Source of the DNA: Edaphobacter aggregans
GTDB lineage: Bacteria; Acidobacteriota; Terriglobia; Terriglobales; Acidobacteriaceae
Length of the DNA: 32,000 nucleotides
NCBI RefSeq assembly: GCF_003945235.1
Contig: NZ_RSDW01000001.1
Location: 3,660,001-3,692,000, forward strand
Reading direction: 5' to 3'
The stretch's first letter is position 1. Each line of letters begins with the position of its first letter. Shown piece after piece: positions 2,997 to 31,807 of this stretch. Below the pieces are notes generated by a model, which saw nothing but the letters and a program-made list of their open reading frames with translations, did no database searches and was not told the origin of the DNA. The position numbers and the translations under genes were made by a program.

Positions 2997-3974
2997 TCAC
3001 CCTTGGGTCGTCACGGCAACGGCTTGTTTTTTGACTTTTTCTTCCAAATACCAGGCTACTGTCTTCCGTAGACCCTCGTGAAACTGCGCCTTGGGCTGAT
3101 AGCCAAGTTCCTTGGTGGCACGGCTGATATCCGCAAGCGAGTGCTTGATGTCGCCCTCCCGGGGAGGGCCATAGTTTGGCTTGCTGGAGAAGCCGATCTG
3201 ATCGGCGATGGCAGCATAAACATCATTCAGGGTGTGGCTCTTTCCTGTACCAACATTGAAGACGCGACCGGTGGCCACCTCGCTCGGAGCCACGCAGGCC
3301 AGTAAATTGGCGCTGACGGCATTGTCTATGAAGTTGAAGTCACGGCTGGTGAGACCGTCACCGAAGATGGTGGGGGTTTCGCCGGCCATCATCTTGTAGG
3401 TGAACTGGGCGATCACTCCAGAGTAGGGTGAGTCCGCGGCCTGGCGGGGGCCGAAGATGTTGAAGTAGCGGAGACAGATTCCCTCTAACCCATATGCCCG
3501 ATAGAAAGACTGGATGTAGTACTCACATGTGAGTTTCTGTACTGCGTAAGGCGAAAGAGGGCGGGGCAACATGTCTTCCTGCTTGGGCTGCGTGGGTTGG
3601 TCTCCGTAGGCTGAGGAGGATGCCGCGTACACGATGCGGCGAACACGCGCGTCGCGTGCGGCGAGGAGCAGGTTCAGGGTTCCGTTTATGTTGGACTCAT
3701 GCGAGGTGACAGGGTCCTTCACGGAGCGTGGAACGGACGCGAGGGCTCCCTGGTGGAGAATGTAGTCAATGCCTTCACAGGCAGACTTCAGCCCGGCGGC
3801 GTCTCGTAGATCCATTTGCTGGAACGAAATTGCATCTCGAATGTCGGCGAGATTATCAAGGTTTCCTGTCGAGAGATTGTCGATCCCTTGTACGTAGTGT
3901 CCCTGGTCAACGAGAGTATGGGCCAGAGAGGACCCGATAAATCCTGCGATTCCTGTAATCAGATAACGAGCCAT
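2997..3974 (-). CDS. NAD-dependent extended-SDR nucleotide-sugar 4-epimerase (WbpP/TviC-like; UDP-GlcNAc or UDP-GlcNAcA 4-epimerase)
   Basis: The ORF track gives 2997..4052. The ATG at 3974 is preceded by GGAGGG (3979..3984) and places the Rossmann motif ITGIAGFIGS at residues 5-14, as expected for SDR epimerases. The catalytic YxxxK is YAVQK. GIDNLSTGNLDNL resembles the WbpP/TviC subgroup. Confidence 0.85.
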   Translation of the reverse strand: MARYLITGIAGFIGSSLAHTLVDQGHYVQGIDNLSTGNLDNLADIRDAISFQQMDLRDAAGLKSACEGIDYILHQGALASVPRSVKDPVTSHESNINGTLNLLLAARDARVRRIVYAASSSAYGDQPTQPKQEDMLPRPLSPYAVQKLTCEYYIQSFYRAYGLEGICLRYFNIFGPRQAADSPYSGVIAQFTYKMMAGETPTIFGDGLTSRDFNFIDNAVSANLLACVAPSEVATGRVFNVGTGKSHTLNDVYAAIADQIGFSSKPNYGPPREGDIKHSLADISRATKELGYQPKAQFHEGLRKTVAWYLEEKVKKQAVAVTTQG

Positions 3975-4028
3975 CGATCCCTCCACCCGAAGTCGTTCGC
4001 TGGGGTGTAACAAAAATTGTGTTGCATC

Positions 4029-4067
4029 GGAAGCGTTCCCATTTAGCGACACCCGACGAAGCGTTCC
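4029..4067. promoter_or_regulatory. two direct copies of GAAGCGTTCC in the divergent epimerase/dehydrogenase promoter region (candidate operator)
   Basis: GGAAGCGTTCC at 4029..4039 and GAAGCGTTCC at 4058..4067, 55-95 nt upstream of the epimerase ATG at 3974. The arms GGAA/TTCC form a dyad around GCG. Confidence 0.3.
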
Positions 4068-4354
4068 AATGCGAATTCAGCAGTCAGTGTAAGCATCAAG
4101 TGTTTCTGGCGAAGCCGGTCGGGTCGATGCAACTTTTGTGCAGTTCGCCGCAGATAGTGCCACGTCCAACCTGACCCGACGCCATAAAAGATACGTGCTT
4201 AAATACTATATTCAACCTTATTGCGAGAGGCATCCCTCTGCGTTTTCGATAGGGGACTACAACGGATCAAAATGGGTTATGCCTGGCGATTATCAGCCCA
4301 GATGCGGCCTCAAGAAAAACACAACAGCAACAGACTGGATGCGATAATCCAGAC

Positions 4355-5722
4355 ATGCTGACTACAAACCAAGTCGTCCTACCGAAGATTGCCCAGGAGC
4401 GCCTCAAGCGTCTCGAGAGCCGCACAGCCAAAATCGGAGTCATTGGGCTCGGATATGTTGGGCTGCCGCTTTCACTGCTTCTTTCTGAGGCTGGTTTCAA
4501 AGTAACGGGCTTCGACATTGATACCAATAAGGTGACGGATCTGGAAGCCGGTCGATCCTATATTTTCCGCATTCCGCAAGAGGAGATTCAGGGGGCGCGG
4601 CAACATGGGTTTACGGCGACGACGGACTTTTCCCATCTGTCGGATCAGGACGCCATCATTATGTGCGTTCCCACGCCGTTGACGGAGCACCGGGAGCCGG
4701 ACCTGAGCTACGTGGAAAATACGACCAGGGCCGCGGCGCCGTGGATTCAAGAGGGCCAACTGGTCGTGCTCGAAAGTACGACTTACCCCGGGACGACGGA
4801 AGAATTGATGATTCCGATTCTGGAAGCTGAGAATTTGCATGGGCTGAAAGTTCAGGGCAAGGGCACGGCGGCAGAACAAGGAGTCTTCTATGTGGCCTTT
4901 TCTCCGGAACGAGAAGATCCGGGCAATGTAACCGTAGCGAGACACAATATTCCGAAGGTCGTCGGCGGCCATGAAGAGATAGCGACCGAGCTTGCCGCAG
5001 TGTTGTATGAAGGGATATTTACACGGTCTGTCCGGGTGTCTTCGACGCGTGTGGCCGAGATGACCAAACTGCTCGAGAACATCTACCGGTGCGTGAACAT
5101 CGCGTTGGTGAATGAGCTGAAGCTGCTTTCGTTGCGCATGGGTGTGGACATATGGGAGGTCATTGATGCAGCTTCGACTAAGCCCTTTGGTTTTCATCCT
5201 TTCTATCCTGGGCCAGGGCTTGGCGGGCATTGCATTCCGATCGATCCTTTTTATCTGAGTTGGAAGGCGAAGGAATATGACTTCAATACGCGGTTCATTG
5301 AGTTGGCTGGAGAAGTCAACGAGTCAATGCCGGCCCATGTGGTGCAATATGTAGCGAAGGGGCTCAACGAGCACAAGAAGGCCGTTAACGGTTCAAAGAT
5401 TTTGATGCTCGGAATGGCCTACAAAAAGGACATCGACGATTTGCGCGAATCTCCTTCGCTTACGGTGATCGAATTGTTGCGTGAACAAGGTGCTGAGGTT
5501 CTCTACAACGACCCCTACTTCCCGACGGTTGGCAGAGGGCGACACTACAACCTCAATATGACCTGTACGCCGTTGGAGGATCTCGAACAATACGACTGCG
5601 TTCTGATCATGACGGATCACTCCGACTACGACTACGAAGATATTGTCAGCCATTCGCAGTTAGTAGTGGATTCACGTAATGCAACGAAAGGGATTCAGTC
5701 TGGTAAGATCGTTCGCTGTTAG
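4355..5722 (+). CDS. UDP-N-acetyl-hexosamine 6-dehydrogenase family (WbpO/TviB/WecC/Cap5O-like nucleotide-sugar dehydrogenase)
   Basis: 455-codon ORF with N-terminal Rossmann KIGVIGLGYVGLPLS. The catalytic Cys context GGHCIPIDP is typical of the UDP-GlcNAc/ManNAc dehydrogenase branch rather than Ugd. It is divergent from the epimerase. Confidence 0.88.
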   Translation: MLTTNQVVLPKIAQERLKRLESRTAKIGVIGLGYVGLPLSLLLSEAGFKVTGFDIDTNKVTDLEAGRSYIFRIPQEEIQGARQHGFTATTDFSHLSDQDAIIMCVPTPLTEHREPDLSYVENTTRAAAPWIQEGQLVVLESTTYPGTTEELMIPILEAENLHGLKVQGKGTAAEQGVFYVAFSPEREDPGNVTVARHNIPKVVGGHEEIATELAAVLYEGIFTRSVRVSSTRVAEMTKLLENIYRCVNIALVNELKLLSLRMGVDIWEVIDAASTKPFGFHPFYPGPGLGGHCIPIDPFYLSWKAKEYDFNTRFIELAGEVNESMPAHVVQYVAKGLNEHKKAVNGSKILMLGMAYKKDIDDLRESPSLTVIELLREQGAEVLYNDPYFPTVGRGRHYNLNMTCTPLEDLEQYDCVLIMTDHSDYDYEDIVSHSQLVVDSRNATKGIQSGKIVRC

Positions 5723-5761
5723 GCAAGCTGGCGATGTGAAGGAAAGGTATTGGGTGGGATA

Positions 5762-5791
5762 GCAGAAGCAAGGGGAGACCCCTGCTTCTGC
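5762..5791 (+). terminator. stem-loop 40 nt downstream of the dehydrogenase stop
   Basis: GCAGAAGCAAGGGG (5762..5775), loop AGA, then CCCCTGCTTCTGC (5779..5791). This gives 13 bp with one bulged A. It is followed by GCTTTAGC, which is only a weak T tract. Confidence 0.45.
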
Positions 5792-6766
5792 GCTTTAGCA
5801 AGTAGGTTTGTAGGTGGCGGTAAAAAAGAAAACGTCACCCTATGGAAAACTAAGTCGAATTCTTGTCCTCGTCATATATGGCGCTGGACGAGATCGTTCT
5901 TTGCGATACGTGCCGGATTCTTGCGGTTCGAGACCTGAACTAAACCACATAAAAAATTGCACCTGTGTTCATTTTTCAACAGACGATGGAACGGGGATCA
6001 CATCTAGGCGTCGCCGTCCTATCTGTTGCGTGATTAAGAATGAGCGGTAACTAGCAGAGAATCAATCTTTAGCTAAGGCGAGCATAACGACTAACTTACG
6101 AGTTTTTAACGGTGTTGTATTTAATAAAAATGCCTCTGTGGTTGCGGCTGAGGAGCGAACGCCGGAAATTTATCCAGCATTTAATTGCGAGGAGAACAAT
6201 ATTGGTGTGATGTGATATAAGAAACGAGTAACCTTTCCAAACGATCGCCACTGAGTTGTGTTGTGGCTGTTTTTTTACTCTGCCGGTTCTGATGACTTTT
6301 AGGAGATCTGCTCGCTAGAGCTATCTTTTCTCAGGAAGGCATGAGTATTTGTTCGATATGTCAGTGTTAACCTCCCCAAAAGTAATCCCCATCACAAAAC
6401 AAATAAGGGCATCAGGCGAGATGCTGGGCCTCTGCTTCTGTCTTGACTTGAGACGCATGTGAGACCAGCCGCCTATAGTGTCGGACTAGTTCCCTACCAC
6501 CAAAGTGGGATGTCCAACTCCATAGGAGGCATAGTTTTGCACTGCAAGTAACGCTAGGCTCCTAACTTAGATTTACCTAAACCTGGTATCTCAGGAACTG
6601 CTTAGTCGTGTCTTATCGCGGTGTAACACTCTGGCGCCTTTGCCACCTTGTGATGAGTTAGGTAACCCATAAGTTGCACTCAAACCTACTCATATAACTA
6701 CAATGGCGGCCGATTTTAGCTGTAAGTCTTATCTAAGACGCAGGGCCACGAAGTATTTCCACCGGC

Positions 6767-9700
6767 TTGTTCGGGCCGAATAATTTCAACCGAACTCAGA
6801 GGTGCGTTTTGGGAAAAGTACTAAGGACGATTGCGACGAGCATTAGCATTTCTCTCTACTTATTTGTTCTGGGATGTGGAGACCCCGCACTTTCTCAATC
6901 CGGGGCCCCGAGTATCAGCCAAATTTTCCCGCAGACTATTGCAGTGGGTACGCAAAGTCAGATTATCAAGGTGACGGGACAGCATTTTGCAAACCAGGCA
7001 GCCATTCTCTGGAATGGGCACGCACTTCCCACGACTGTTGTCGATTCCAATACGTTGTCTGGGGCAGTTCAAGGTAGTAATCTCGCCGCTCCCGCTACTG
7101 TTCAGTTGAAAGTGCAGAACTTGGATAATGGGCAACAATCGCAACCTATGCCAGTAACGGTGGCAGCGGCTGCTACGTCGTCCAGTCAACTCGTAATCAA
7201 CTCGGTCGCTGTTTCCGGAGCAATGGTGAATCAACCATATGCCAGCGCGTTCGGTGCAAGTGGAGGCACTCCTGTGTACACATGGTCGATCACGTCTGGA
7301 CAATTGCCGGCGGGCCTCTCTCTTGTGGCATCGACCGGTGTAATTTCCGGTATACCGACGGTCAGCGGGACGTTCAATTTCACTATCTCGGTTGCGGATT
7401 CAGCAAGCCCGGCACAGTCTGTCTCGACGTCGGCCTCGATCACTGTCTCGTCTTCACAACTGGCGATCCTATCGCCACAGTTTCCCTCCGGAGGTGTCGG
7501 CACGGCTTATTCGATTGCCATGAAAGCTGCTGGCGGCACACCTGCATACACATGGTCCATTACGTCCGGACAATTGCCAACGGGTCTCTCTATGGGATCA
7601 TCGAGCGGCGTGATATCCGGTACACCGACAGTTGGTGGTACGTTCAAATTCACCATCTCGGTCGCGGATTCAGCAAGTCCGGCACAGTCGATCTCGACGT
7701 CGGCCTCGATCACTGTCTCGTCTTCACAACTGACGATCTTGTCCCCACTGTTCCCCTCCGGGGGTGTCGGTACGGCTTATTCGATTGCCATGAAAGCTGC
7801 TGGCGGCACACCTACATACACATGGTCCATTACGTCCGGACAATTGCCGACAGGTCTCTCTATGGGATCATCGAGCGGCGTGATATCCGGTACACCGACA
7901 GTTGGCGGTACGTTCAATTTCACCATCTCGGTTGCGGATTCATCAAACCCGGCACAGTCAGTCTCGACGTCGGCCTCAGTTAGTGTCGGATCTTCTCAGC
8001 TGGCGATCACGTCCTCAGTGCTATCCTCTGGGATTGTCGACACGGCTTATTCGACGGCTTTACAGGCAAGTGGCGGAACACCGGCTTATACCTGGTCGAT
8101 TGCCGCAGGTAGTCTGCCTGCAGGGCTCACTCTGGCCGCGACCACCGGTGTAATTTCGGGTACACCGACGACTTCTGGAACCTCTAAATTCATCGCAAGT
8201 CTGACGGACAACAGCAATCCGGCACAAACGCAGTCCACTGCGATGACAATCACAGTAGCCGCGGCACAGCCGCCTACGGGGCCTGGAACAACCTGGTACG
8301 TTCGCCCCGATGGAGGCACACGGTATTCTTCGAATGTGACTACGGGCCAATGTGATGGTAAGGCGGATGCGCCATACTCAGGCTCCGGTGTGAACCAGCA
8401 CTGCGCGTTCAACGACGTGCGGATGCTGTATCAGGATGGGACGTATAACATCGGCGCGTCATTTCCGGCCTGGGGTTGGGTAATTGCTGGTGGCGATACG
8501 GTCCTCATTCGAGGATCTATTGGGACGGGCGTCTCCTACCGGATAGGTTGGAACGGTACGACGTACGACGGTTGGGGTATTGCAGGGGATCCGTGGAGTT
8601 CCGGGATGCCGCCTCCTCCATCGGGGACAGCATCGCAGCACACGCGTATTTTGGGTGAAAACTATGCTTCGTGTCACAGTGCATCGGCTAAGACGCAGCT
8701 CCATGGCGGACGAGGGGCTTACGCTGTCATGAGTTTGTATGGGGCTTCCTACGTGGATGTCGCTTGTCTTGATATCACGGATTTTTCGGCGTGTGGTCGG
8801 GCAACGCAAAAAGTAGGATGCGATTCGACACAAGACTTCGCACAGGTCGGGATTCAACTCCACAACACCTCAACGCATGATTCGTTCACTGATATTCATA
8901 TCCATGGTCTTGCTGGAGCAGGCGTAGCTGGATCTACTGGAGATGGCGTAGTGATGGACTACGTGGACATTCTGGGCAACGCCAGTTCCGGGTGGAACGC
9001 CGATGAGGGCGATGGGACCACCGGTGTAGGATCGCTCCTCGTGTCTCATTTCAACATCAGTTGGAACGGCTGCGCCGAGGAGTATCCGATTGTTGACTCT
9101 GTTCCGTACGGAGACTGCACGGATCAGTCCAGCGGAGGGTATGGAGATGGCTTCGGTACTGCGACCGTAGCAAGTCCTTCTCCTGGTTGGCAGGTCCACT
9201 TTGATAATGGCACTGTAAGTTACAACACGCAGGATGGATTGGATGCACTTCATATCAGCGGTCCCGGGTCGACAATGACTGACACGAGAGTGCTGGCGTA
9301 TGGAAATGAAGGACAGCAGCTAAAGGTAGGTGGAGCTACCGCAACGATACAAGATAGCGTCATTGTGGGGAATTGTGAAGCGATGACGACGCAAGCAATT
9401 CCGGGGACACCCGCGGGATTCGGGTCGGTTCTGGCGTCACCTTGCAGGGCCGCGAATACAGCGGTCGTTATCAACGTCACACCTGGCTATCAGGCTACCT
9501 TTCAAGGCAATACGGTTTTTACCCAAGGATCGATTGGTCTTGAGGTAGAGTACGCAACTGCAGACACAGGGCCAACTAACACGCTTCAATTCAACGACAA
9601 CATATTTGTTGGATTTCCGAACTCTGGGAACGGAGCGAACCCCACTCCGATTTATAGCAACACTGATCTAAAGATGCTCACGAATCCGGGTGCGAGTTGG

Positions 9701-12616: not shown

Positions 12617-12683
12617 CTTGCGTATTTTCCCACATCGTCGACGGTTGCACTCGAATTTGTTGAGCGGTCGGCAAGCTAACTAC

Positions 12684-13655: not shown

Positions 13656-13967
13656 TGTGAAATCTCCAATCAGAGGTATGAGTCGTCAAGCGGGAATGCA
13701 GTATCCACTTGAGTTCTGTACGTTCCACTTCATGTCACGGTCGAGATTAGCGTCGAACAGAGTGCCAATTTAGCGAGGGCTTTCCGCTGTCCGCGATGAT
13801 ACACATGAACGCCAAAGACTTGAAGCCTAATGCGTGGGATCGATTCGTAAGTCACTTGTTTGCAGTTGGATGAAACATGAGGTTGCTAAAAAAGTCCAAA
13901 CAAAATGTGTTGCGACAATCGATTTTGACGCATTGACTAGAAGAGGTATGCCAGCGACATCCGTACC

Positions 13968-19025: not shown

Positions 19026-19304
19026 CGTAAGCTCCAGTAAGGCGTTCTGTCATCTGAGAGAGACGCAATGCGCGAGGTGTATCGCAGTGTGTGGTCAGCC
19101 AAAGAAGCTGGCGGGCAAATGCTCCGTGGAGGGGATACAACGCGAGGGCTTTTAGGAGTCACAAATCCTCTCGATGTCTGCTGCCGCATACATGATCGCG
19201 GATCAGTCGAGAACGATGCTTTTACTGATGATACGTCATCTGCAGGATGGAAAGGAAAGTGCTTTTTATACAAAAGTGGTAGGGGAAGTGACGATATCGA
19301 GGTG

Positions 19305-19348
19305 CCATCACTTTCAGTATTCGGTCACGACGCTGCTACCATCACTTT
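19305..19348. repeat. 10-nt direct repeat CCATCACTTT x2 upstream of the flippase gene
   Basis: CCATCACTTT occurs at 19305..19314 and 19339..19348 (34-nt period), 90-130 nt upstream of the TTG at 19438, inside the 412-bp divergent intergenic region. Confidence 0.3.
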
Positions 19349-19437
19349 GCGCACGCAAACATCAATGGCGGTTCTGAAAACAGATGAAGTTGAGATGTTT
19401 TCGTACGGTTTGAAGTCGGCGCAAAGGAGTTTTTAGC

Positions 19438-22203: not shown

Positions 22204-22244
22204 AAGACCACATCCGCGTCATAACCACTGAGGGAGTTTTTGGC

Positions 22245-23045: not shown

Positions 23046-23213
23046 TGTCATTGGTTTGCCGCCGAGAATATCCGCCATATGAATCGATGGTGCATTTTAT
23101 TCAGCAGGCTGGTTTTCGTGAACGTGCACAGCAATTCTGGACGTAGCTGCTATCGAGCTTTAGCGCATGTAAACTACGGAGGACAGTAGTGTGGGCCTGG
23201 GAGTGCAACGCGG

Positions 23214-24122: not shown

Positions 24123-24374
24123 CGGCGATTTGGGTAAGGCCGCTGAGGGAGGTCCCTTGTCAGGCATTCGCGTTGGCCTCATCCCACTCATTCGTCTTGT
24201 TAAGCTTTCTGAGCCGCGAGACGGAACGGCTACCCGGACTGGATCTGCAAATTACGAAATCGTCCTCTTACTTCGTCACGCAGGCTAAGTAACGACTTTT
24301 GATTGTGACGATTGCGTCATACAAATAGAGCAGTCAAGTTCCAGCGACTCACAAACATGGGAGGAGACAGCACG

Positions 24375-25343
24375 ATGGAAAGTTCGGAGCTAAACGCAGC
24401 TCCCCTAGTGAGCGTGGCGATTACTGCGTTCAATTCAGCCAACTGGTTACCACGAGCTCTTGATAGCGTGCTTGCCCAGCGAACTGATTTTCCAATCGAG
24501 ATAGTTATTGGTGATGACTGCTCTCAGGACACAACCCTCGAGGTTGCTCGTTCTTATCGAGAGCGGCATCCAGATGTGATCAGGATATTGGAACGAAGCA
24601 AGAATGTCGGCATTCAGCGCAACTATTATGAGACCTTTGAAACTTGCCGCGGTAAGTTCATTGCATGGCTGGATGGGGATGACTACTGGACGGACCCCGA
24701 GAAATTAGCGATTCAGGTGAAAGCTATGGAATCGGATCCGTCTATAAATCTGTGCGGTCACTATATTCGAGTAGTTTCGAGAGACGGAGAAGTAAAACAA
24801 GATAGATCTCCCTCCATGCCTCCTGGGCGGTATGGACTTGAAGAGATGCTTCACAGCTGCTTTATCCCTAGCCTCTCAGCGATGTTCCGCAATGGTATCC
24901 ACCGTCAGTTGCCGGCGTGGTACTTTGATCTGGCGCCCGTCACTGAGTGGCCGATTTGGGTGTTGGCTGCTCTTTCGGGGAATGTCGTTTTACTGGATCG
25001 CGTAATGGCAGATTACATGCATACGCCGGGCAGCGCCGCCTGGAGTCAGGGAGACCTGTTCAGGGAAACGATGGAAGCAAAATTCTATGAACAGATTGAG
25101 AGCGTCCTTCCGTCGAAGTGGCACAGGCTCGTTCGTGCAGAGAAGGGCAAGCGCTATGAAGCGATGGCATACTTCCTTAGAAAACAGGGGCACTTTCGTG
25201 CATCGCGAGAGGCGGCGTTGAAGGCATTTCGCTCGCCACTTCTCCTGGACAGCGTGGGCAGCAAGACGAAGGCGCTGTTTGCTGCTGTAGTGCGCGAAAC
25301 GGAGTGGAGATTTCGGCGTCGGCGGATTGCGGACTCAATGTAG
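24375..25343 (+). CDS. glycosyltransferase family 2 (GT-A)
   Basis: The ORF is open from 24312. The ATG at 24375 is preceded by GGGAGGAG (24359..24366, 8-nt spacing). GT2 signatures are PLVSVAITAFNSANWLPRALDSVLAQ...IVIGDDCSQDTT and WLDGDDYW (DxD). Confidence 0.85.
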   Translation: MESSELNAAPLVSVAITAFNSANWLPRALDSVLAQRTDFPIEIVIGDDCSQDTTLEVARSYRERHPDVIRILERSKNVGIQRNYYETFETCRGKFIAWLDGDDYWTDPEKLAIQVKAMESDPSINLCGHYIRVVSRDGEVKQDRSPSMPPGRYGLEEMLHSCFIPSLSAMFRNGIHRQLPAWYFDLAPVTEWPIWVLAALSGNVVLLDRVMADYMHTPGSAAWSQGDLFRETMEAKFYEQIESVLPSKWHRLVRAEKGKRYEAMAYFLRKQGHFRASREAALKAFRSPLLLDSVGSKTKALFAAVVRETEWRFRRRRIADSM

Positions 25344-25417
25344 TGGCCGTTGTCCGATCTCTTGGCTAAGACTTCAGTTCGTAGTCAATGGATATGCGGT
25401 CGGTTCCCAGGATCAGG

Positions 25418-26137
25418 TTACGATTTATCCGTCGTAGCTTTAGGGAGTTCCGTATTGATCTCGAGGCCGCTTTGAGCGGCTTGGTGAAGATTTCCGAGAT
25501 CTTCAGTTGAAAAAGGATCAATCGTGTTATTCACATAACCGACAGAACCGGCGGTCGAAACAACCTTGCCAGGGTTCCCTACAATGACGGCTGAACTGGG
25601 TACGTCAAAGTTGACATAAGCACCTGGAGCGATAAGTGCATCGTGTCCAATGGTCACTTTCCCAACGATAATCGCATTTGCGCCCACCCAGACTCGATCC
25701 TCTAGGGTGGGTGCCCCCTTACGCGAGCCCCGGCTCGTGGCTCCGATAGTGACTCCCTGTGCAATGTTAACGTTGGCTCCTAAAATCGCGTGAGGACTGA
25801 TGACGACTCCTCCAAAGTGCCCAATGAATAAACCTGGGCCAATGTCAGTGGTAGGGGAGATGTCAAAGCCATACTTGAAGCGATAGTGATGAAGCTGGAT
25901 TCGGTTGTAAATATAGGGAAAGATGCCGAAGGATTTCTTTCGCTTGCTATAGAAGGCAACTTTGCGCAGATAGTACGTAAAGCGAAAACCCGGCTCGCGA
26001 ATATATGCTGACAGAAAAGCGCGTGTATTTGCTTGTCCGCGGTAACGGTAAACATCAGCTTGTAACGTTTGCCAAAGCGTAGAGGCCAATCTTAGCTCCT
26101 TCTTTTCGAGGCTTTTGGTCAGTGTGATCCGGCGCAC
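25418..26137 (-). CDS. hexapeptide-repeat (LbH) O-acetyltransferase, serine acetyltransferase/WcaB-like
   Basis: 239-codon ORF with a GTG start at 26137 and no internal Met. It has left-handed beta-helix hexapeptides (ILGANVNIAQGVTIG, VWVGANAIIVGKVTIGHDALIAPGAYV) and a CysE/WcaB-type N-terminal helical region. Confidence 0.85.
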   Translation of the reverse strand: MRRITLTKSLEKKELRLASTLWQTLQADVYRYRGQANTRAFLSAYIREPGFRFTYYLRKVAFYSKRKKSFGIFPYIYNRIQLHHYRFKYGFDISPTTDIGPGLFIGHFGGVVISPHAILGANVNIAQGVTIGATSRGSRKGAPTLEDRVWVGANAIIVGKVTIGHDALIAPGAYVNFDVPSSAVIVGNPGKVVSTAGSVGYVNNTIDPFSTEDLGNLHQAAQSGLEINTELPKATTDKS

Positions 26138-26248
26138 ACGTGATCTACCTTTGTGTCATTGGCACTGTTTGTGCTGTGGTCTAGTATTGTAATTTAGCTA
26201 TCGCAATCAGCATAACGCGAGTTAGACATATGCTTGCCTGTTGAATTG

Positions 26249-27034
26249 ATGTCGAAGGAACAGATGCAACATCCCTTGCGGAAACTTTATCTTCTGTATC
26301 ACGAGCTGCGACCCAACAGCAGCAAGTACTCGTACGCCCTTGAGGCCAGAGTGTTTGAGCAACATATGGATCTTTTTGTTCAAGTGCGGGAGGCAACGGA
26401 TTCGGGGCTATATCCCGAGATAACTTTTGATGATGGACATATTTCGAACTCTGAGTTCGCCCTACCCATTCTGCAATCGCGAGGCCTGAAGGCGCACTTC
26501 TTTATTACCGTGGGCTGGACGGGGAAGAGAGCTGGCTATATGGACTGGCCAGAGCTCAGAGCTCTTCATCAGGGCGGTCAGTTGATCGGTGCTCATGGAT
26601 GGACGCATACGCTCCTTACTCATTGCAGCGTCAAGGATCTACAGACAGAGCTGGGTAATGCGAGACTGACGCTTGAGGATAAGCTGGGAACATCTATTAC
26701 TACAATGTCCCTTCCAGGAGGCCGCTACAATCGCCGAGTCATCACGGCCTGCCAGGAAGCAGGCTACACAGAGATCTACACCTCTATTCCAAGAGCCGAG
26801 ACGGCGCCGCTGGGCCCAATGATTGGTCGGTTGAATATTCGCGGGAATATGAATCTCGAATTTATTGCCAAAGTCCTTCGACCCGACAGTAATGTTCTGT
26901 CGAGCCTGGAACGTCAATATCAGATAAAGGCAACCGCGAAAACTCTACTCGGAGACCGGCTGTATGAAAAACTTTGGGCGCTTCTGAATAGAAAAGAACA
27001 CGATACCGATGGCGGCTGGGCTACTGCTGAATGA
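26249..27034 (+). CDS. polysaccharide deacetylase (CE4 / NodB homology domain)
   Basis: CE4 motifs are ITFDDGH, HGWTH and SLPGGRYN. The start is ambiguous: TTG at 26234, ATG at 26249, or ATG at 26264 (AAGGA 4 nt upstream). Confidence 0.85.
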   Translation: MSKEQMQHPLRKLYLLYHELRPNSSKYSYALEARVFEQHMDLFVQVREATDSGLYPEITFDDGHISNSEFALPILQSRGLKAHFFITVGWTGKRAGYMDWPELRALHQGGQLIGAHGWTHTLLTHCSVKDLQTELGNARLTLEDKLGTSITTMSLPGGRYNRRVITACQEAGYTEIYTSIPRAETAPLGPMIGRLNIRGNMNLEFIAKVLRPDSNVLSSLERQYQIKATAKTLLGDRLYEKLWALLNRKEHDTDGGWATAE

Positions 27035-28188
27035 AGATCCTGCACATCATTAGCAGCGGAGGAATGTACGGCGCGGAAGCTGTCATTCTGAATATGTCGC
27101 GAGCTCTCAATGAGAGTGGTCATAACAGCGTGCTTGGCGTTTTCTCAAACTCTTCGAATCCAAATACTCAGCTTCATGAAGGGGCCGCGAAAGAGGGCAT
27201 CGAATCCCATCTGATTCCCTGCAAAGGGCAAATGGATCGGACAGTACTTACAAGCATCCGCGAGCTTGCATCTCGAACGAACGCAGATGTCATTCATGCT
27301 CATGGCTATAAGGCAGATATTTACCTCTACTCTGCAATGCGAATGGGGGGAGTGCCGTTAGTCTCCACCTGTCACACCTGGTATGACAATGATCCTTTCG
27401 TCTTCTTATATGGTGTAGCGGATCGTTTTGTGCTGCGAAACTATGCGGCAGTTGTGGCTGTCTCAGATGAAGTCAAACAGAGATTACTGAAAGCCGGAGT
27501 CCGCAAAGAGAAAATTCACCTGATTCGAAACGGAATTGACCTTCGTCCGTTCGATAACGCCCGCCCCACTCTTCGCGGAGATTCGACAGGAGATGCTGCT
27601 CTCATTATTGGATTGGTTGGGCGTTTGTCCAAGGAGAAGGGAGTCGATCTTTTTATACGTGCAGCTGCCCGCGCCCTGGTCGAGTTCCCGCGCGCGAGAT
27701 TTTTGGTCCTCGGTGAAGGGCCGGATCGAGATAAGCTGGAGTCCTTGATCGATGAGCTTAATATTGGGGATAGCCTTCAACTCCTGGGCCAACTCGATAA
27801 TATGCCGTCGATATATGCTTCACTGGATCTCATGGTTTCGGCATCGCGACAGGAAGGACTGCCCATAGCGATTCTGGAGGGGATGGCCAGCAGGCTTCCG
27901 GTGATTGCAACCGCCGTAGGTGATGTGCCGACCGTTGTGCTGGATGGCCGAACAGGAGTGCTTGTATCTGCTGAAAATATTGAAGCGCTCTCTGCAGGAA
28001 TCATAGAGCTGCTGCGGGATACTGCAAAGTGCAAGCGCCTCGGAGTGGCGGCGAGACAGTTCATCGAAAAAGAGTTTTCTGCCGAACGAATGACAACGGA
28101 TTATCTCCGTGTGTATGAATCTGCAAGCCGAACGAGCAAGGCAAGGCGATTTGAAGCTACTCGGCCTCTCGGAGAGAAAACGAAGTGA
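27031..28188 (+). CDS. glycosyltransferase family 4 (GT-B)
   Basis: 385-codon ORF with an ATGA overlap with the deacetylase stop. It has MKILHIISSGGMYGAE and SRQEGLPIAILEGMASRLPVIATAVGDVPTVVLDGRTGVLV. Confidence 0.9.
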   Translation: MKILHIISSGGMYGAEAVILNMSRALNESGHNSVLGVFSNSSNPNTQLHEGAAKEGIESHLIPCKGQMDRTVLTSIRELASRTNADVIHAHGYKADIYLYSAMRMGGVPLVSTCHTWYDNDPFVFLYGVADRFVLRNYAAVVAVSDEVKQRLLKAGVRKEKIHLIRNGIDLRPFDNARPTLRGDSTGDAALIIGLVGRLSKEKGVDLFIRAAARALVEFPRARFLVLGEGPDRDKLESLIDELNIGDSLQLLGQLDNMPSIYASLDLMVSASRQEGLPIAILEGMASRLPVIATAVGDVPTVVLDGRTGVLVSAENIEALSAGIIELLRDTAKCKRLGVAARQFIEKEFSAERMTTDYLRVYESASRTSKARRFEATRPLGEKTK

Positions 28189-29387
28189 ACGGAAGCATCC
28201 ATCGGCCCAGGATTTTCATGATGGATATGTTGGCGACGGTGCCATACTACACCGCATATCTTGCCAAGGCGCTGCTACTGGAGCACGTCGATGTAACTGT
28301 CGGATCGATCTCCTACTATCTGGATCCCAGTTGCTTCTCGAGTCGTGGAATTGAGATCGATCCGGGGTTGCTCGATGTAGTGGGCAAGTTTCATTTATCC
28401 CGGCTGCCGCGCCGAATCTTAAAGTTGATTGAGGCGATTCTGAATCTTTCTGCACTGAGCATTCGCTTTCTGGTCGCTGCTCCTCCCGATGTAATTCATG
28501 TGCAATATCTGCCAATGCTCATGTGGCGGGTTCCACTCGATCTGTGGTTTGTTGAATTCTGCCGAAAGCGGGGTTCGAAGACTGTGCTGACAGTTCACGA
28601 TCTACTACCCCACGATACCGGTGAGGCATACAAGCAGACCTTCCATGATCTCTATCGTATGGTCGACAGGATTATCTGCCACTCTGACCACATCCGCGCA
28701 AGGCTTGGTGCGGAATTTAGTGTGCCTGAAGAAAAGATAGCTGTTATTCCACATGGTCCATTCTTCTATGATCTTCCTGCAGTGGGTTCCGAACAGACGT
28801 TGCAGAATTTTCAGATTGGGCCCGATAAAGTTACGATCCTGTGGCAGGGAATTATCTTTCCATACAAAGGGATAGATCTCCTGCTGGATGCCTGGCAAAA
28901 AGTCGAGGAAAATACCCAGGACGCTTGCCTTGTCGTTGCCGGTACAGGAGCACCAGAGTTGCTTGAGCAGATTCGCGAACAAGTCAAACAACTTGATCTG
29001 AAGCGGGTGAAGCTTCACTTTCGGTTCATCTCCACCGAAGATTTGGTGGCTCTATATCGAGTGGCGGACGTTGTCGTTTATCCCTATCGTGCGATTACAA
29101 CCAGTGGTGCGCTTGCGACAGGGCTGGCTCTGGGAAAAGCTATTGTCGCTAGCGATCTACCAGTCTTTCGTGAGTTGCTGACGGATCGAGAGAATGCGCT
29201 GCTGGTTGATCCACAAGATTCCCTTAAGCTTGCGGGGGCACTGATTGAGCTGACTCAGGATGCAGCCTTGCGGGAGCGGCTTGCTGGTAAGGTGCGCCAG
29301 ATGAACTTCGGTGACCACTCGTGGCACTCCATCGCCAGGAAGACCATGCAAGCCTATGAGAGTGTTTTGCTTTATCCGCTCTCTTAG
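28185..29387 (+). CDS. GT-B fold glycosyltransferase (GT4-like, divergent EX7E region)
   Basis: 400-codon ORF with a GTGA overlap with the upstream stop. It has VLTVHDLLPHD and a C-terminal YPYRAITTSGALATGLALGKAIVASDLPVFRELLTDRENALLV. The acidic residues of the canonical EX7E are replaced. Confidence 0.8.
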   Translation: MNGSIHRPRIFMMDMLATVPYYTAYLAKALLLEHVDVTVGSISYYLDPSCFSSRGIEIDPGLLDVVGKFHLSRLPRRILKLIEAILNLSALSIRFLVAAPPDVIHVQYLPMLMWRVPLDLWFVEFCRKRGSKTVLTVHDLLPHDTGEAYKQTFHDLYRMVDRIICHSDHIRARLGAEFSVPEEKIAVIPHGPFFYDLPAVGSEQTLQNFQIGPDKVTILWQGIIFPYKGIDLLLDAWQKVEENTQDACLVVAGTGAPELLEQIREQVKQLDLKRVKLHFRFISTEDLVALYRVADVVVYPYRAITTSGALATGLALGKAIVASDLPVFRELLTDRENALLVDPQDSLKLAGALIELTQDAALRERLAGKVRQMNFGDHSWHSIARKTMQAYESVLLYPLS

Positions 29388-29410
29388 AGAGAGGTTTTCT
29401 CGTCGCAGGT

Positions 29411-29469
29411 CAAAAAGAAATTAGGCGTGTACCCTTGTTCGGAAGAAGCAGAACAAAGAGGCACACGCC
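29411..29469 (-). terminator. rho-independent-type terminator of the TPR lipoprotein gene (possibly bidirectional)
   Basis: An imperfect 16-bp stem (29424..29440 with 29451..29469; 1 mismatch, 2 bulges; 10-nt loop). On the - strand it is followed by UAAUUUCUUUUUG (the complement of 29411..29423). It lies between the convergent stops at 29387 and 29510. Confidence 0.5.
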
Positions 29470-29509
29470 CAATTGCATCATGTTGAAAGATACCCACGGT
29501 TCTGATGAG

Positions 29510-31807
29510 CTAGCTCAGGGAACTAAGCGCCTTTTCAGCATCTTTTGATGTCTGACTGTTGGGCGCCAGGGCGACAGCCTTCTTCAGATGATTCACAGCG
29601 TCTGCGGTGTTCGAGAGTTTTGAGTAGGTCATTCCAAGGTGATAATGTACCGCGGCGTCATTTGGCGAAACCTTCACTGCGTCTTCCAGCAAGTCCCTTG
29701 CGGAGGTGTAATTTCCTTTCTGGTAATAGACCCACGCCAACGTGTCAGCCGTGCTGGGTGAGTCAGGCATCGCTCGGCGAGCAATCTGAGCAAGGGAGAG
29801 AGCAACGTCGGTATTCTGTCCGCCTTCCACCATCAGGTAAGCGAGGTTGTTGGCCGCGACTGGCTGTTCGGGTTGGATCTTGAGGGCTGCCTTGTAATAA
29901 TCGATGGCTTTGCCCTGATCTCCGCGTGCTTCTTCAAGCGCACCCAGGATGGTATTTGCTTGTGCGTCGCTGGGGTGGGTCTTAAGCCATTGTTGCCAGG
30001 TGTCGATTGCTTTTGCGGGGTCTCCATGGCTGAGAGTTGCACGGGTGTAGACCATCAAAGCGGCACCGTTGTTTGGATTGAGCTGCATCGCCTTTTGGGC
30101 CGAGGCTGTGCCCGCGTTTATGTCACCGGTCTGAAGCTGCAGCTCAGCGAGCATGGTGTACATATCTGCGTTCTGCGGGACTTTGGCGATCTGCTGCTGA
30201 ATACGATCAATGGCCTTGGCTGGCTGCTTCTCAACCAGCATGGTGTAGACAAGCAGGCGCATGGCGCGAGCGGAGTTTGGGTCGTTGGTGAGTGCCTGCT
30301 CGAGGAGAGCCTTGGCTTCGGGAATATTCTTCTGAGTCAAACGAAGCTCTGCCAGGGACAAGGGAGCGAGAGCGTTTTTGGGGTCGAGTTTCATGGCCTG
30401 CTTGAAATCGGCCTCTGTCTTGTCGTACTGTTTCTGATTCCCTTCTGACATCCCTCTCCAAATGTAAGGATTCGCGAGCTGCGGGTTGATGGCGATGGCG
30501 GCCTCCGCAGCCTGTGCTAGAAGCCCGAAGTCGCGGGCATCGAGGGCGGCCTGAGCGAGACCCTCCTGGGCCTGGAAGTTTCTCGGGTTGAGCTTTACAG
30601 CGTCGCGAAAGCTCTGAAGGGCAACGGTCTGATCGCCCTTCATGCGAGCGGCGCGGCCCAGCCAAATCTTGACCTGAACGTTCTCGGGGTTGTTCTTCGC
30701 AGACTTCTGCAGGAGGTTGAAGGCTTCAGTTGCCTTGTTATCGTTCAAGAGGAGCATGGCGTTGAGAACTGCAACGTCGGGGTCGCCCGCGTCGGTTTTT
30801 TCAAGATCGTCAGCGATGGGCTTGGCCTTCGCCACGTCCTTTTTCATGAGCAGGATGCGGGCATAGGCCAGCTTGAGTTGCGTGCTCTTAGGATGTTTGG
30901 CGACAAGATCAGCGTAGGCCGGCTCGGCACGATCCAGCTGCTGGGTGCTGATGTAGTAGCTCTCAAGAAGGTTAGCCCCGACCGGTGAGTCGCTGAGATC
31001 GTCGGCTGTTTGCCGGAAGGTCTCTTCGGCCTTGGCCTTGTCACCTTGGCGGAGATATATATGGCCGAGGTTGGCGCGTGCGCTGACATTTTTGGGGTCG
31101 GCTGTGACGGCGGCTTGCATCGCTTGCAAGGCTCCGGACAGGTCACCCTTTCTCTCGAGCAATGCGGCGAGCGCTATGTGAGAAGTGGCGTTCTTCGGAT
31201 CGAGTGAGACGGCCTTGTTGAGTTGCTCTTCGGCAGCAGGTTCTGTGGCGGGATCAGAGGCCTGGAGAAGGCCAAGCGCGGTGTGAAAGTTGGCCCGGTT
31301 CGGGTCGATGGAGAGGGCGTGTTGAATCTGGGAGAGGGCTTCGGCGCGATCTCCCTTGGTGGCGGCTATGCTCGAGAGAAGGGCATAGGCGTCGGCGTTG
31401 TTGCTGTCGATCGCCAGTACAGCCTTTGCCTGTTCGGCTGCACGGTCAGGCTGGCGGCCGGCCAAAAGCATGTTGCCGAGGTCGATCCGAGCCTGGGTAT
31501 TGCTGGACTGCAGGTCGACTGTGCGGAGAAGCTCGGCGTAGGCGGGCAGCATATTGCCCTGTTTGACATAAACTTTGGCCAACTCATAGTGGGCCGCAGC
31601 GAAGTTATGATCGACCCTGAGAGCGTTGGAGAACTGGATGGCCGCTTCCTTCAACTTATTGTCGGCAGCGTACCGTTTGCCGCTCTCAAGATACTTCTGT
31701 TTTTGCTTGTTGGGGTCGCGCGAACAACCAACGGTAAGCCCCAAGGCGATCGAGACAGCAAGTACCGCAGAAACCCGGAACCATCGTGGAGCTAATTGCA
31801 TTTTCAT
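29510..31807 (-). CDS. TPR-repeat lipoprotein, PEP-CTERM-system PrsT-like
   Basis: 765-codon ORF. The signal MKMQLAPRWFRVSAVLAVSIALGLTVGC has a lipobox, followed by TPR units almost end to end. The N-terminal segment YLESGKRYAADNKLKEAAIQFSNALRVDHNFAAAHYELAKVY resembles PrsT (TIGR02917), but this protein is shorter than I recall for that family. TPR lipoprotein is confident; PrsT is tentative. Confidence 0.8.
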   Translation of the reverse strand: MKMQLAPRWFRVSAVLAVSIALGLTVGCSRDPNKQKQKYLESGKRYAADNKLKEAAIQFSNALRVDHNFAAAHYELAKVYVKQGNMLPAYAELLRTVDLQSSNTQARIDLGNMLLAGRQPDRAAEQAKAVLAIDSNNADAYALLSSIAATKGDRAEALSQIQHALSIDPNRANFHTALGLLQASDPATEPAAEEQLNKAVSLDPKNATSHIALAALLERKGDLSGALQAMQAAVTADPKNVSARANLGHIYLRQGDKAKAEETFRQTADDLSDSPVGANLLESYYISTQQLDRAEPAYADLVAKHPKSTQLKLAYARILLMKKDVAKAKPIADDLEKTDAGDPDVAVLNAMLLLNDNKATEAFNLLQKSAKNNPENVQVKIWLGRAARMKGDQTVALQSFRDAVKLNPRNFQAQEGLAQAALDARDFGLLAQAAEAAIAINPQLANPYIWRGMSEGNQKQYDKTEADFKQAMKLDPKNALAPLSLAELRLTQKNIPEAKALLEQALTNDPNSARAMRLLVYTMLVEKQPAKAIDRIQQQIAKVPQNADMYTMLAELQLQTGDINAGTASAQKAMQLNPNNGAALMVYTRATLSHGDPAKAIDTWQQWLKTHPSDAQANTILGALEEARGDQGKAIDYYKAALKIQPEQPVAANNLAYLMVEGGQNTDVALSLAQIARRAMPDSPSTADTLAWVYYQKGNYTSARDLLEDAVKVSPNDAAVHYHLGMTYSKLSNTADAVNHLKKAVALAPNSQTSKDAEKALSSLS

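Follow-up and report, generated by a model that had tools for sequence, protein, structure and literature searches.

The variable, repeat-unit-specifying half of a probable XrtA-like exosortase/PEP-CTERM-associated, Wzx/Wzy-dependent exopolysaccharide locus in Edaphobacter aggregans

The 32,000-nucleotide stretch of Edaphobacter aggregans DNA analysed here (the window) is probably the variable, repeat-unit-specifying half of an XrtA-like exosortase/PEP-CTERM-associated, Wzx/Wzy-dependent exopolysaccharide (EPS) locus. Every gene in the window was assigned by domain search or, for the gene at 9936-11717, by structure comparison, and profile searches of the open reading frames with Pfam and NCBIfam bore out the gene inventory and positions of an earlier note made from the same DNA. 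That note matched the combination to no characterised locus. Judged by its genes, however, the locus is a member of an already known class, the XrtA/PEP-CTERM, Wzx/Wzy-dependent exopolysaccharide systems, because its TPR gene is PrsT, a hallmark of the PEP-CTERM/exosortase system, which was described in 2006 and is associated with EPS loci (PMC1569441); the glycan structure is a prediction from the genes. In Aquincola, flocculation requires prsT, epsB2 (TIGR03013) and a PEP-CTERM protein (PMC9850573). To call the locus unusually elaborate was also an overstatement, as approximately 19 kb are collinear in the related genome L084, its modules recur elsewhere in other combinations, and loci already characterised in other bacteria, such as the Rhizobium Pss-I region, use more than 20 genes to assemble an octasaccharide (PMC9961541, PMC7589315).

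The conserved core begins with PrsT (29510-31807, minus strand). This protein scores 358 bits against TIGR02917 (cut-off 312), carries a lipobox-like LTVGC motif and adjoins EpsI and exosortase genes in 75 of 80 related loci; it is the gene earlier labelled a TPR lipoprotein. The window closes with 93 bases (31908-32000, minus strand) from the 3' end of epsI, which encodes an exosortase-associated protein and continues past the window. The 30 residues encoded there differ at one position from the EpsI C-terminus of the soil contig L001, which is 98-100% identical to the window across 27,700-32,000, its last 4.3 kb. The remaining core genes were read from this relative, the epsI tail being the part directly seen in the E. 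aggregans window itself. Past epsI (TIGR02914, 110 bits, cut-off 42.8), L001 encodes in order an exosortase (TIGR02602, 198 bits, cut-off 105.6), a divergent Wza-like exporter, a 450-aa protein and a Wzz-like determinant, then an ATPase resembling TIGR03015, a tyrosine autokinase (TIGR01007, 114 bits, cut-off 108) and a priming transferase of the TIGR03013/03025 type (TIGR03025, 333.6 bits, cut-off 295.6), with Poly_export/SLBB and Wzz/GNVR domains in the exporter and chain-length genes. This order is common to 71-80 of 80 Acidobacteriaceae loci. Thus the earlier observation holds to the letter, in that the window contains none of the priming, export or exosortase genes in complete form, but their apparent loss is an artefact of the window edge, which falls inside epsI, a gene end that the note could not have recognised, with the core following directly in L001.

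Several core proteins score below the cut-offs of the XrtA-system models, namely XrtA (200.6 bits against 208), TIGR03027 (146 against 180), TIGR03007 (221 against 279), TIGR03015 (282 against 324) and, for a truncated protein, TIGR03013 (353 against 393), and the exosortase matches the XrtD model (227 bits) slightly better than XrtA. As most of these equivalog models fall below their curated cut-offs, the acidobacterial core is a divergent version of the XrtA system. Neither prsK nor prsR was seen, and no PEP-CTERM substrate gene was found within the window; at least ten relatives have genes for proteins with classical PEP-CTERM tails in the slot after PrsT.

The glycosyltransferase island occupies a hypervariable slot bounded by PrsT on one side and a TPR/PKS flank on the other, both conserved. 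Two genes mark this left flank: a type III polyketide synthase outside the locus (362-1438, minus strand; Chal_sti_synt_N and _C domains, DpgA-like at 163 bits, under cut-off, GC3 0.83) and a small secreted TPR protein (1581-2459, minus strand; weak TPR matches, GC3 0.79). In six island-less relatives the synthase lies about 3 kb from PrsT; the TPR gene is the last in common with such loci, and nucleotide homology to them stops at about 2339. The junction that follows (2460-2996, GC 0.521) contains short ORFs and no credible gene, and at this position L084 has one or more PEP-CTERM genes and a DDE transposase. In six relatives the slot after PrsT is 2.2 kb long and contains a single flippase gene; in E. 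aggregans it measures approximately 27 kb. A breakpoint at approximately 27,600-27,800 falls within the glycosyltransferase gene GT4c (27031-28188, plus strand; Glycos_transf_1, E 2e-38), where identity to L001 rises from 72-85% to 98-100% and identity to L004 and L003 drops from 90-97% to 65-83%. In our reading, homologous recombination between members of the Acidobacteriaceae has rearranged the island, and the breakpoint is better evidence for the mosaic proposed earlier than GC content.

That the low-GC segment is a foreign genomic island, recently acquired from a donor outside the Acidobacteriaceae, appears highly improbable. Such an origin would suit the lower GC of the island (0.522, GC3 0.50-0.64) when compared with the left flank (1-2459; 0.602, GC3 0.79-0.83), the presence of the island in some relatives and its absence from others, and the IS transposase at the left junction in L084. 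However, the homologues found are all from Acidobacteriaceae, the window has no tRNA and the scanned ORFs no transposase or integrase domain, and the conserved, vertically syntenic core from PrsT to the priming transferase has a similarly moderate GC3 (0.56-0.67), so that low GC is not confined to the island. In L001, GC past PrsT is back to 0.52-0.56 for at least 8.7 kb, with no compositional boundary on the right over that distance. By windowed GC the locus is therefore distinct from its left flank, as had been claimed, but not from its right. The five spot GC counts behind that claim (43/60, 40/60, 26/60, 30/60 and 31/60) were all exact on recount; the line taken as right flank (30601-30660) falls within PrsT, itself part of the system.

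Two genes point to the sugar-nucleotide supply. The first encodes a WbpP/TviC-like UDP-HexNAc(A) C4-epimerase (2997-4052, minus strand; Epimerase domain, E 1e-58), with a possible start at about 3976 and a length of 325 aa by gene caller on a related contig; the TviC model gives 283 bits, under its cut-off, and the nearest solved structures are WbpP (1sb8, E 1.4e-86) and WbgU. The second encodes a UDP-HexNAc 6-dehydrogenase of the WecC/Cap5O/TviB group (4355-5722, plus strand) in which all three UDPG_MGDP_dh domains are present (TIGR03026, 406 bits, cut-off 189.8), nearest in structure to the UDP-ManNAcA dehydrogenase 4r16, Cap5O and the NDP-GalNAcA dehydrogenase 3g79. Pfam likewise confirmed the tailoring set: two SAM-dependent methyltransferases, one (12684-13655, minus strand; Methyltransf_11, 30.5 bits) missing in L084 and the other (23214-24122, plus strand; Methyltransf_23, E 2e-22) 99% identical to L004, a hexapeptide-repeat O-acetyltransferase of the CysE/EpsC/WcaB type (25418-26137, minus strand; Hexapep, E 3e-12; EpsC model 104 bits, under cut-off), and a CE4 polysaccharide deacetylase (26234-27034, plus strand; Polysacc_deac_1, E 9e-22), which is probably cytoplasmic since a hydropathy scan found no hydrophobic segment. 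From these enzyme families we may reasonably infer a glycan containing a HexNAc uronic acid that is O-methylated, O-acetylated and partly de-N-acetylated. The Wzx/Wzy-type assignment with its dehydrogenase/4-epimerase pair and tailoring enzymes is borne out by the domains.

All eight glycosyltransferases previously noted, four GT2 and four GT4, were recovered by Pfam and NCBIfam. The GT2 enzymes comprise one of soluble type (11714-12616, minus strand; Glycos_transf_2, E 1e-32), whose block with beta-helix, methyltransferase and GT87 genes is conserved in Tunturiibacter, the membrane-anchored GT2b (17916-19025, minus strand; Glycos_transf_2, Glyco_trans_2_3 and Glyco_transf_21) bearing one hydrophobic segment at the N-terminus and three at the C-terminus, GT2c (22200-23045, or from 22245, plus strand; Glycos_transf_2, E 2e-12; protein 99% identical to L004), and GT2d (24312-25343, or from 24375, plus strand; Glycos_transf_2, E 3e-28). 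GT4c is accompanied by GT4a (15303-16469, minus strand; Glycos_transf_1, E 1e-42), GT4b (21055-22203, plus strand; Glycos_transf_1, E 5e-35), which best matches the XrtA-system glycosyltransferase model TIGR03088 (147 bits, under cut-off), and GT4d (28185-29387, plus strand; Glyco_trans_1_4, E 3e-22). Three polytopic proteins were also as described: a Wzx/MOP-family flippase (19438-20964, plus strand; Polysacc_synt_3, E 2e-16; Polysacc_synt, E 9e-12; about 11 hydrophobic segments), a Wzy_C-family protein (16521-17873, minus strand; PF04932, 70 bits; about eight segments) and a GT87/DUF2029-like candidate of GT-C type (14045-15253, plus strand; PF09594, 34.4 bits, cut-off 25; at least seven segments).

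Membership of the Wzy_C family cannot tell polymerases from ligases, and the Pfam family includes WaaL ligases and PglL/TfpM-type O-oligosaccharyltransferases. The Wzy_C protein could then be a ligase or O-oligosaccharyltransferase that transfers an oligosaccharide to PEP-CTERM or other surface proteins (O-glycosylation) or to lipid A-core (O-antigen), with no free EPS formed. Its best NCBIfam match is TIGR03097, 'putative O-glycosylation ligase, exosortase A system-associated' (60.8 bits), followed by TfpM (48.6 bits), the GT4a-Wzy-GT2b block adjoins PrsT in approximately 16 relatives, and the slot after PrsT also houses PEP-CTERM genes. These scores are nevertheless far under the cut-offs of 188 and 600, no second Wzy candidate was found to polymerise the unit, and the full PCP/tyrosine kinase/OPX export set read in L001, needed only by a polymer, adjoins. 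We consider ligation unlikely, and prefer a repeat-unit polymerase.

The eight glycosyltransferases need not all act on a single repeat unit, since modules of the island occur separately elsewhere. Two or three independent glycan modules may lie side by side (IgBH-BH-GT2-MT-GT87, GT4a-Wzy-GT2b-Wzx-GT4b and GT2c-MT-GT2d-AcT-CE4-GT4c-GT4d), in which case the predicted repeat of nine sugars with multiple decorations would be too large. GT4a-Wzy-GT2b-Wzx stands beside PrsT in approximately 16 loci and CE4-GT4-GT4 in six, Tunturiibacter has CE4-GT4-GT4 abutting IgBH-BH-GT2-MT-GT87, the island switches strand at least nine times, and protein identity to L004 varies sharply among modules, from 99% to 77%. 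Yet L084 keeps its 19 kb in the same order, and Wzx, the Wzy_C protein, the priming transferase and the export set each occur once, as fits a single polymer. Independent modules are a real but lesser possibility than one pathway with a very long repeat.

The two beta-helix-like lipoproteins reported earlier are paralogues, each with an LGC lipobox-like N-terminus. The first (6767-9952, plus strand) is a surface protein with a choice-of-anchor-Z domain (NF058597, 65 bits), four He_PIG Ig repeats (E 6e-45 in four stretches), a 270-bp tandem repeat covering 7261-8054 and a C-terminal beta-helix, its LGC being present if an upstream start is taken. The second (9936-11717, plus strand; 593 aa), a paralogue of that C-terminus, has a C-terminal transmembrane helix, is identical (100%) to E. 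aggregans EDE15_3079 and has more than 2000 homologues; the 1002-aa E. aggregans Ig-domain protein P0065, taken as the product of 6767-9952, is 74% identical across 87% of it. The second protein has no match in Pfam or NCBIfam, but its AlphaFold model (AF2, pLDDT 73) is a right-handed beta-helix whose top Foldseek matches are AlgE4/AlgE6 C5-epimerases, PL6 alginate lyases, RbmB and chondroitinase B, making it a candidate polysaccharide lyase or epimerase.

In our putative single-polymer pathway, the dehydrogenase and WbpP-like epimerase would supply UDP-2-acetamido-hexuronic acid, a polyprenyl-phosphate hexose-1-phosphate transferase encoded just past the window would start the lipid-linked unit, and the eight glycosyltransferases, four GT4 and four GT2, would lengthen it. 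The unit would be modified by the acetyltransferase, both methyltransferases and the deacetylase, apparently a cytoplasmic enzyme, then flipped by Wzx and polymerised by the Wzy_C protein, with the Wzz-like protein, tyrosine kinase and Wza-like exporter past the window controlling chain length and export. The GT87-like protein may attach a periplasmic branch sugar, and trimming or epimerisation of the uronic-acid polymer may fall to the two beta-helix proteins. Coupling of the polymer to PEP-CTERM surface proteins would depend on PrsT, EpsI and the exosortase, as happens in Zoogloea and Aquincola, which form flocs.

Between the dehydrogenase and the first beta-helix gene lies a 1-kb gap without genes (5723-6766), where GC reaches the window minimum of 0.46. 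A block within it matches no Rfam family at gathering score and lacks a folding signal; this block (approximately 6222-6398) is conserved at approximately 86-88% identity to L084, compared with 56-65% for the remainder of the gap.

An ORF map combined with Pfam and NCBIfam scans over 23 window ORFs bears out the gene set that the earlier note had proposed. Eight glycosyltransferases are encoded, four of the GT2 family (11714-12616, 17916-19025, 22200-23045 and 24312-25343) and four of the GT4 family (15303-16469, 21055-22203, 27031-28188 and 28185-29387). The Wzx flippase is a MOP-family gene (19438-20964) matching Polysacc_synt_3 and Polysacc_synt above their cut-offs, and the further GT-C/DUF2029-like polytopic protein is a GT87/DUF2029-like protein (14045-15253) with no NCBIfam match at E ≤ 5. 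The tailoring set of two SAM methyltransferases, a hexapeptide acetyltransferase and a CE4 deacetylase is likewise recovered by the Pfam and NCBIfam scans. The proposed Wzy/ligase-family polymerase carries a Wzy_C domain (16521-17873; 70 bits against a cut-off of 31.7), but this family also includes ligases.

Sugar supply was attributed to a UDP-HexNAc dehydrogenase and 4-epimerase, and an NDP-sugar dehydrogenase (4355-5722) and an epimerase (2997-4052) are indeed found, divergently arranged. The nearest solved structures to the epimerase are WbpP (1sb8, E 1.4e-86) and WbgU (E 3e-77), and those nearest to the dehydrogenase are UDP-ManNAcA dehydrogenase, Cap5O and NDP-GalNAcA dehydrogenase; the assignment of the pair therefore stands at family level. 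The arrangement resembles the UDP-GalNAcA supply of P. aeruginosa O6 (WbpO/WbpP) and Salmonella Typhi (TviB/TviC), in that the epimerase is nearest to WbpP and to the TviC model and is paired divergently with a UDP-HexNAc 6-dehydrogenase. The dehydrogenase, however, is closer to UDP-ManNAc dehydrogenases (4r16, Cap5O) than to TviB, and substrate and product are predicted ones. The only exact match to the dehydrogenase protein lies on a 6-kb JGI contig, and exact look-ups of five proteins, four from the window and P0001, gave no match. Two further candidate genes were discarded. A 122-aa ORF (19068-19436) in the divergent promoter gap between the GT2 gene at 17916-19025 and wzx has a GC3 of 0.455, no family match (Pfam; NCBIfam at E ≤ 5) and no homologue among 80 related loci, so it is probably no gene; and a 167-aa gene called between the TPR gene and the epimerase on a related JGI contig is not intact in the window.

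At the right end of the window, the TPR protein (29510-31807, 765 aa) is PrsT, the TPR lipoprotein of the XrtA/PEP-CTERM system (TIGR02917, 358.4 bits against a cut-off of 312.2), and the last 93 bases encode the C-terminus of EpsI. An exact 41-mer from this end is absent from GTDB representative genomes and matched a 120-kb soil metagenome contig, Ga0070734_10000297 (L001), whose EpsI differs by one amino acid over the shared stretch. L001 is 96.7% identical to the window overall and 98-100% identical from ∼27,700 to 32,000, the last 4.3 kb; it is a close relative and not the window's own contig. Priming, export and exosortase genes had been reported as missing. None is complete in the window, but all lie within 8.7 kb of its edge as read in L001. 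On the strand of PrsT and EpsI (TIGR02914, 110 bits against 42.8) an 8-TM exosortase adjoins EpsI (PF09721, E 4e-76; TIGR02602, 198 bits against 105.6). The divergent strand encodes, in order, a Poly_export/SLBB protein, a 450-aa protein, a Wzz/GNVR chain-length determinant, a TIGR03015-like ATPase, a tyrosine autokinase (TIGR01007, 114 bits against 108) and, directly after the kinase gene, a priming polyprenyl-phosphate glycosylphosphotransferase (TIGR03025, 333.6 bits against 295.6).

Scanning species-representative genomes with the exosortase yielded 80 Acidobacteriaceae loci, in 71-80 of which the same core order recurs: priming glycosyltransferase, kinase, ATPase, Wzz, 450-aa protein and Wza on one strand, with exosortase, EpsI and PrsT diverging. 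The priming transferase is present in 71 of the 80, the PCP (Wzz/Wzc-type) and OPX (Wza-type) export proteins in 72-73, and a PrsT gene syntenic with EpsI and the exosortase in 75, the TPR repeats themselves being promiscuous. The 450-aa protein (L001 4695-6047, minus strand), between the Wza-like and Wzz-like genes, occurs in 73/80 loci with a median identity of ∼42%; it has no Pfam match and no NCBIfam match even at E ≤ 5. Its position makes it a possible outer-membrane partner for the Wza-like protein, which is short (243 aa).

The domain models place this module near the PEP-CTERM/EpsH XrtA system described by Haft et al. in 2006 (PMC1569441). Points in common are a PrsT score above the cut-off, an EpsI gene next to that of an 8-TM exosortase, and best matches to XrtA models for the chain-length determinant, ATPase, kinase, export and TIGR03013-type priming proteins. 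For the L001 proteins, TIGR03027, 03007, 03015, 03018 and 03013 are each the best or joint-best match, while all score below their equivalog cut-offs (146 vs 180, 221 vs 279, 282 vs 324, 114 vs 231 and, for a truncated protein, 353 vs 393, respectively). Most equivalog scores just under the cut-off are a point of difference from the XrtA system, as is an exosortase that falls between two models, with 200.6 bits against a cut-off of 208 on the XrtA-specific TIGR03109 and a marginally better 226.9 bits against 400 on XrtD, the latter over the N-terminal half only. The lineages differ too, Acidobacteriaceae here and Proteobacteria there, and neither prsK/prsR nor a PEP-CTERM gene is seen in the window (motif scan for the latter) or in the 8.7 kb beyond it, read in L001. 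These two-component regulators may lie elsewhere, as they do in Aquincola, where prsK/prsR have a locus of their own (PMC9850573). In L001 (7206-8842) the exosortase and epsI are separate genes with a 4-nt overlap, and both proteins score best on the fused XrtD (VPLPA-CTERM) model (227 and 163 bits, respectively). The acidobacterial exosortase may, judging from these model scores, be a subtype of its own.

Past PrsT, the DNA is hypervariable among the 80 loci. In six genomes a single 514-aa flippase gene (2.2 kb) is followed by counterparts of the small TPR gene and type III PKS in the left flank of the window, and the ∼27 kb at 2460-29387 is therefore a presence/absence polymorphism. The flanking type III PKS (DpgA-like, 163 bits, below cut-off) and small secreted TPR protein (362-2459) are a conserved gene pair, lying 2-3 kb from PrsT in six Acidobacteriaceae genomes. 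Parts of the island recur in other combinations: the GT4 gene at 15303-16469, the Wzy_C gene and the GT2 gene at 17916-19025, with or without Wzx, directly adjoin PrsT in ∼16 genomes; the two GT4 genes at 27031-29387 with the CE4 deacetylase adjoin PrsT in six genomes, as in the window; and Tunturiibacter keeps a block of the Ig/beta-helix gene, beta-helix gene, GT2, methyltransferase and GT87-like gene, with CE4-GT4-GT4 directly upstream. Other genomes carry unrelated genes past PrsT, including classical PEP-CTERM proteins with tails such as TPEPSSLLLLGTGLIGSAGALFRRMRA. At least 10 relatives encode tails of this kind next to PrsT, and finding them in the same slot confirms, as far as gene content can, that the acidobacterial exosortase module is a true PEP-CTERM system; classical PEP-CTERM genes at the same locus are a further likeness to the XrtA system (PMC1569441).

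A longer counterpart of the island is provided by L084, a MAG contig with an 84% identical beta-helix protein, whose gene order follows that of the window over ∼19 kb, from the TPR flank to Wzx (74-79% nucleotide identity). L084 departs from the window in four respects: PEP-CTERM gene(s), again with classical tails, and a DDE transposase occupy its left junction; methyltransferase 1 is lacking; the Ig/beta-helix gene is fragmented; and only short fragments are called at the positions of the first GT4 gene (15303-16469 in the window) and the Wzy_C gene. At this left junction (L084 844-3100, equivalent to window 2322-3007), the classical PEP-CTERM gene seems to be broken into two ORFs and the DDE transposase is 472 aa long; the window has just ∼0.7 kb of DNA poor in ORFs at the equivalent place, which may be a deletion scar.

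The earlier note had also suggested a GC mosaic distinct from its flanks, from five spot counts that all proved exact on recount. On the left side the contrast holds (GC 0.60 and GC3 0.79-0.83 in the flank, against 0.52 and 0.50-0.64 in the island), but no right-hand boundary is visible within the 8.7 kb read in L001: the high-GC TPR line taken for a right flank belongs to PrsT (GC3 0.67), and beyond it, in the L001 core, GC returns to 0.52-0.56 with a GC3 of 0.56-0.63. The island (GC3 0.50-0.64) thus shows no difference from the conserved core including PrsT (0.56-0.67). Where relatives lack the island, GC3 is the same in the PKS/TPR flank as in the core. What contrasts, and in this lineage only, is therefore the PKS flank with the EPS super-locus as a whole.

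A mosaic is more strongly supported by sliding identity than by GC. Over 22,500-27,500 the window is 90-99% identical to two related loci, L004 and L003, with a dip to 72-86% around the intergenic gap at 24.0-24.5 kb, and right of the breakpoint identity to them falls to 65-85%; to L001 it is 72-85% just left of ∼27,700 and 98-100% to the right. The nearest relative thus switches sharply at 27,600-27,800, where identity to L004 and L003 drops from 90-97% to 65-83%, which places a recombination junction inside the GT4 gene 27031-28188 and, from this pattern of identity, points to recent homologous recombination. Acquisition of the island from outside the Acidobacteriaceae would have been another account of its origin; we rejected it as the main explanation, given that the homologues found are all acidobacteriaceal, that the core has an equally moderate GC3, and that no transposase, integrase or tRNA accompanies the island. 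Pfam finds no transposase or integrase domain among the window ORFs scanned, the IS transposase being confined to the relative L084, and the window contains no tRNA.

Both beta-helix-like proteins of the earlier note are present and are paralogues of each other. The shorter (593 aa, 9936-11717) matches the hypothetical Edaphobacter aggregans protein EDE15_3079 at 100% identity and has more than 2000 homologues, every organism-named one of which is from the Acidobacteriaceae. The longer (1061 aa, 6767-9952) has, in addition, a choice-of-anchor-Z domain and four Ig repeats of the He_PIG type, the He_PIG Ig domains being encoded by a 270-bp tandem DNA repeat (7261-8054; 2.9 copies, 86% matches). 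An E. aggregans Ig-domain protein, P0065 (1002 aa), is presumably the product of the 1061-aa gene with a later start assigned; it aligns with 87% of the 593-aa protein at 74% identity. Among relatives the length of the Ig/beta-helix orthologue varies, from 892 aa with a second He_PIG protein of 1785 aa in the related locus L082 to 1002-1061 aa here, and it is fragmented in L084.

No Pfam or NCBIfam model matches the beta-helix family, nor did a profile search against PDB sequences give a match; fold comparison alone succeeded. An AlphaFold (AF2) model of the 593-aa protein, built from 27 homologues, is a right-handed beta-helix with moderate pLDDT (73) and a pTM of 0.75, and Foldseek returned 34 PDB matches to it at E ≤ 1e-3. 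The nearest folds are the mannuronan C5-epimerases AlgE6 and AlgE4, PL6 alginate lyases, the Vibrio polysaccharide lyase RbmB and chondroitinase B (E 2.5e-5 to 5e-4; probability 1.0, TM 0.5-0.6 on the target), at a sequence identity of only 9-13%. The predicted folds of the 593-aa protein and of the 1061-aa C-terminus match AlgE4/AlgE6, PL6 lyases and V. cholerae RbmB best; all of these act on uronic-acid polysaccharides, which fits the HexNAcA supply predicted here, although low identity and the lack of any Pfam or PDB sequence match set the acidobacterial family apart. Invariant motifs such as GYGDGFGT and NTQDGLDALH run through it. From the modelled fold, we infer that the beta-helix proteins could trim or epimerise a HexNAcA-containing polymer. 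The fuller reading, that the family (two paralogues here, one Ig-fused) comprises new surface enzymes cleaving or epimerising a 2-acetamido-uronic-acid polymer and, together with the GT87-like and Wzy_C proteins, would serve exosortase-anchored matrix remodelling or glycan attachment rather than simply free EPS, strikes us as improbable. After the beta-helix, the C-terminus of the 593-aa protein (11540-11717) ends in QPEPGPSRGPSHVSTVMKSLGTAVLVAGAWRGFLYLRDRSTKA, a sorting-signal-like tail with a PEP tripeptide, a ∼15-residue spacer, a transmembrane helix and a basic tail; no sorting-signal family is found in it (NCBIfam, E ≤ 5), and conservation across the family does not extend to the PEP.

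The analysis shows the gene families and their order, as well as the conserved core of the near-identical contig and the relatives; a pathway can be proposed from what is established for Wzx/Wzy-dependent synthesis and from the PEP-CTERM model (PMC1569441, PMC9850573). UDP-HexNAcA would be supplied. Synthesis of a unit would begin on polyprenyl phosphate, as many as eight glycosyltransferases would lengthen it, and tailoring would take place in the cytoplasm. The island is modular, so the eight enzymes need not all work on a single repeat unit. Wzx would flip the unit, the Wzy_C protein would polymerise it, and the PCP, kinase and OPX proteins would export the polymer, which would be coupled to exosortase-processed surface proteins, leading to cell aggregation. 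E. aggregans is named for forming aggregates.

In Zoogloea resiniphila ('zooglan') and Aquincola tertiaricarbonis, cell aggregation comes from large EPS clusters that work with prsT, a priming transferase of the epsB2 type and PEP-CTERM proteins (PMC9850573; epsSMASH preprint 10.64898/2025.12.21.693542). The present locus is alike in placing a large EPS cluster beside prsT and a priming transferase, but its glycosyltransferase set, GT87-like protein and beta-helix/Ig proteins are specific to the acidobacterial island. A locus of this scale is not unprecedented, as the Rhizobium leguminosarum Pss-I region shows, with more than 20 genes for glycosyltransferases, modification and polymerisation/export (PMC9961541). 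Pss-I, however, has an unrelated gene order, is without an exosortase module and makes EPS of other sugars (Glc, GlcA and Gal at 5:2:1, PMC7589315). No characterised locus is known to be collinear with the island. Taken on its gene and domain content, the locus is best placed in the XrtA/PEP-CTERM EPS class known since 2006, of which it is a divergent acidobacterial representative; no new kind of system is revealed.

Acidobacteriaceae count among the most abundant bacteria of soils, to whose aggregation their EPS is believed to contribute. In the literature searched, the sole characterisation of acidobacterial EPS chemistry covers two Granulicella EPS, with no genes linked (PMC5259719). For this family, the loci show a conserved exosortase/export core with an adjoining hypervariable, recombining slot that would decide which glycan or PEP-CTERM proteins are made. 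Aggregation in E. aggregans can thereby be approached through a defined gene set, and acidobacterial EPS loci can be typed within a common framework. Two points deserve attention, namely the unannotated beta-helix family and the recombining slot beside the conserved exosortase core.

Finally, a ∼180-nt block (6222-6398) within the gene-free gap 5723-6766, which has the lowest GC of the window (0.46), is 86-88% identical to L084, against 56-65% for the surrounding gap. The block gave no RNA folding signal and no Rfam family at gathering score, as was the case in the Rfam scans run on the window, and a sigma-54 consensus scan of the window gave no match. One possible role is that of a regulatory site ahead of the Ig/beta-helix operon.
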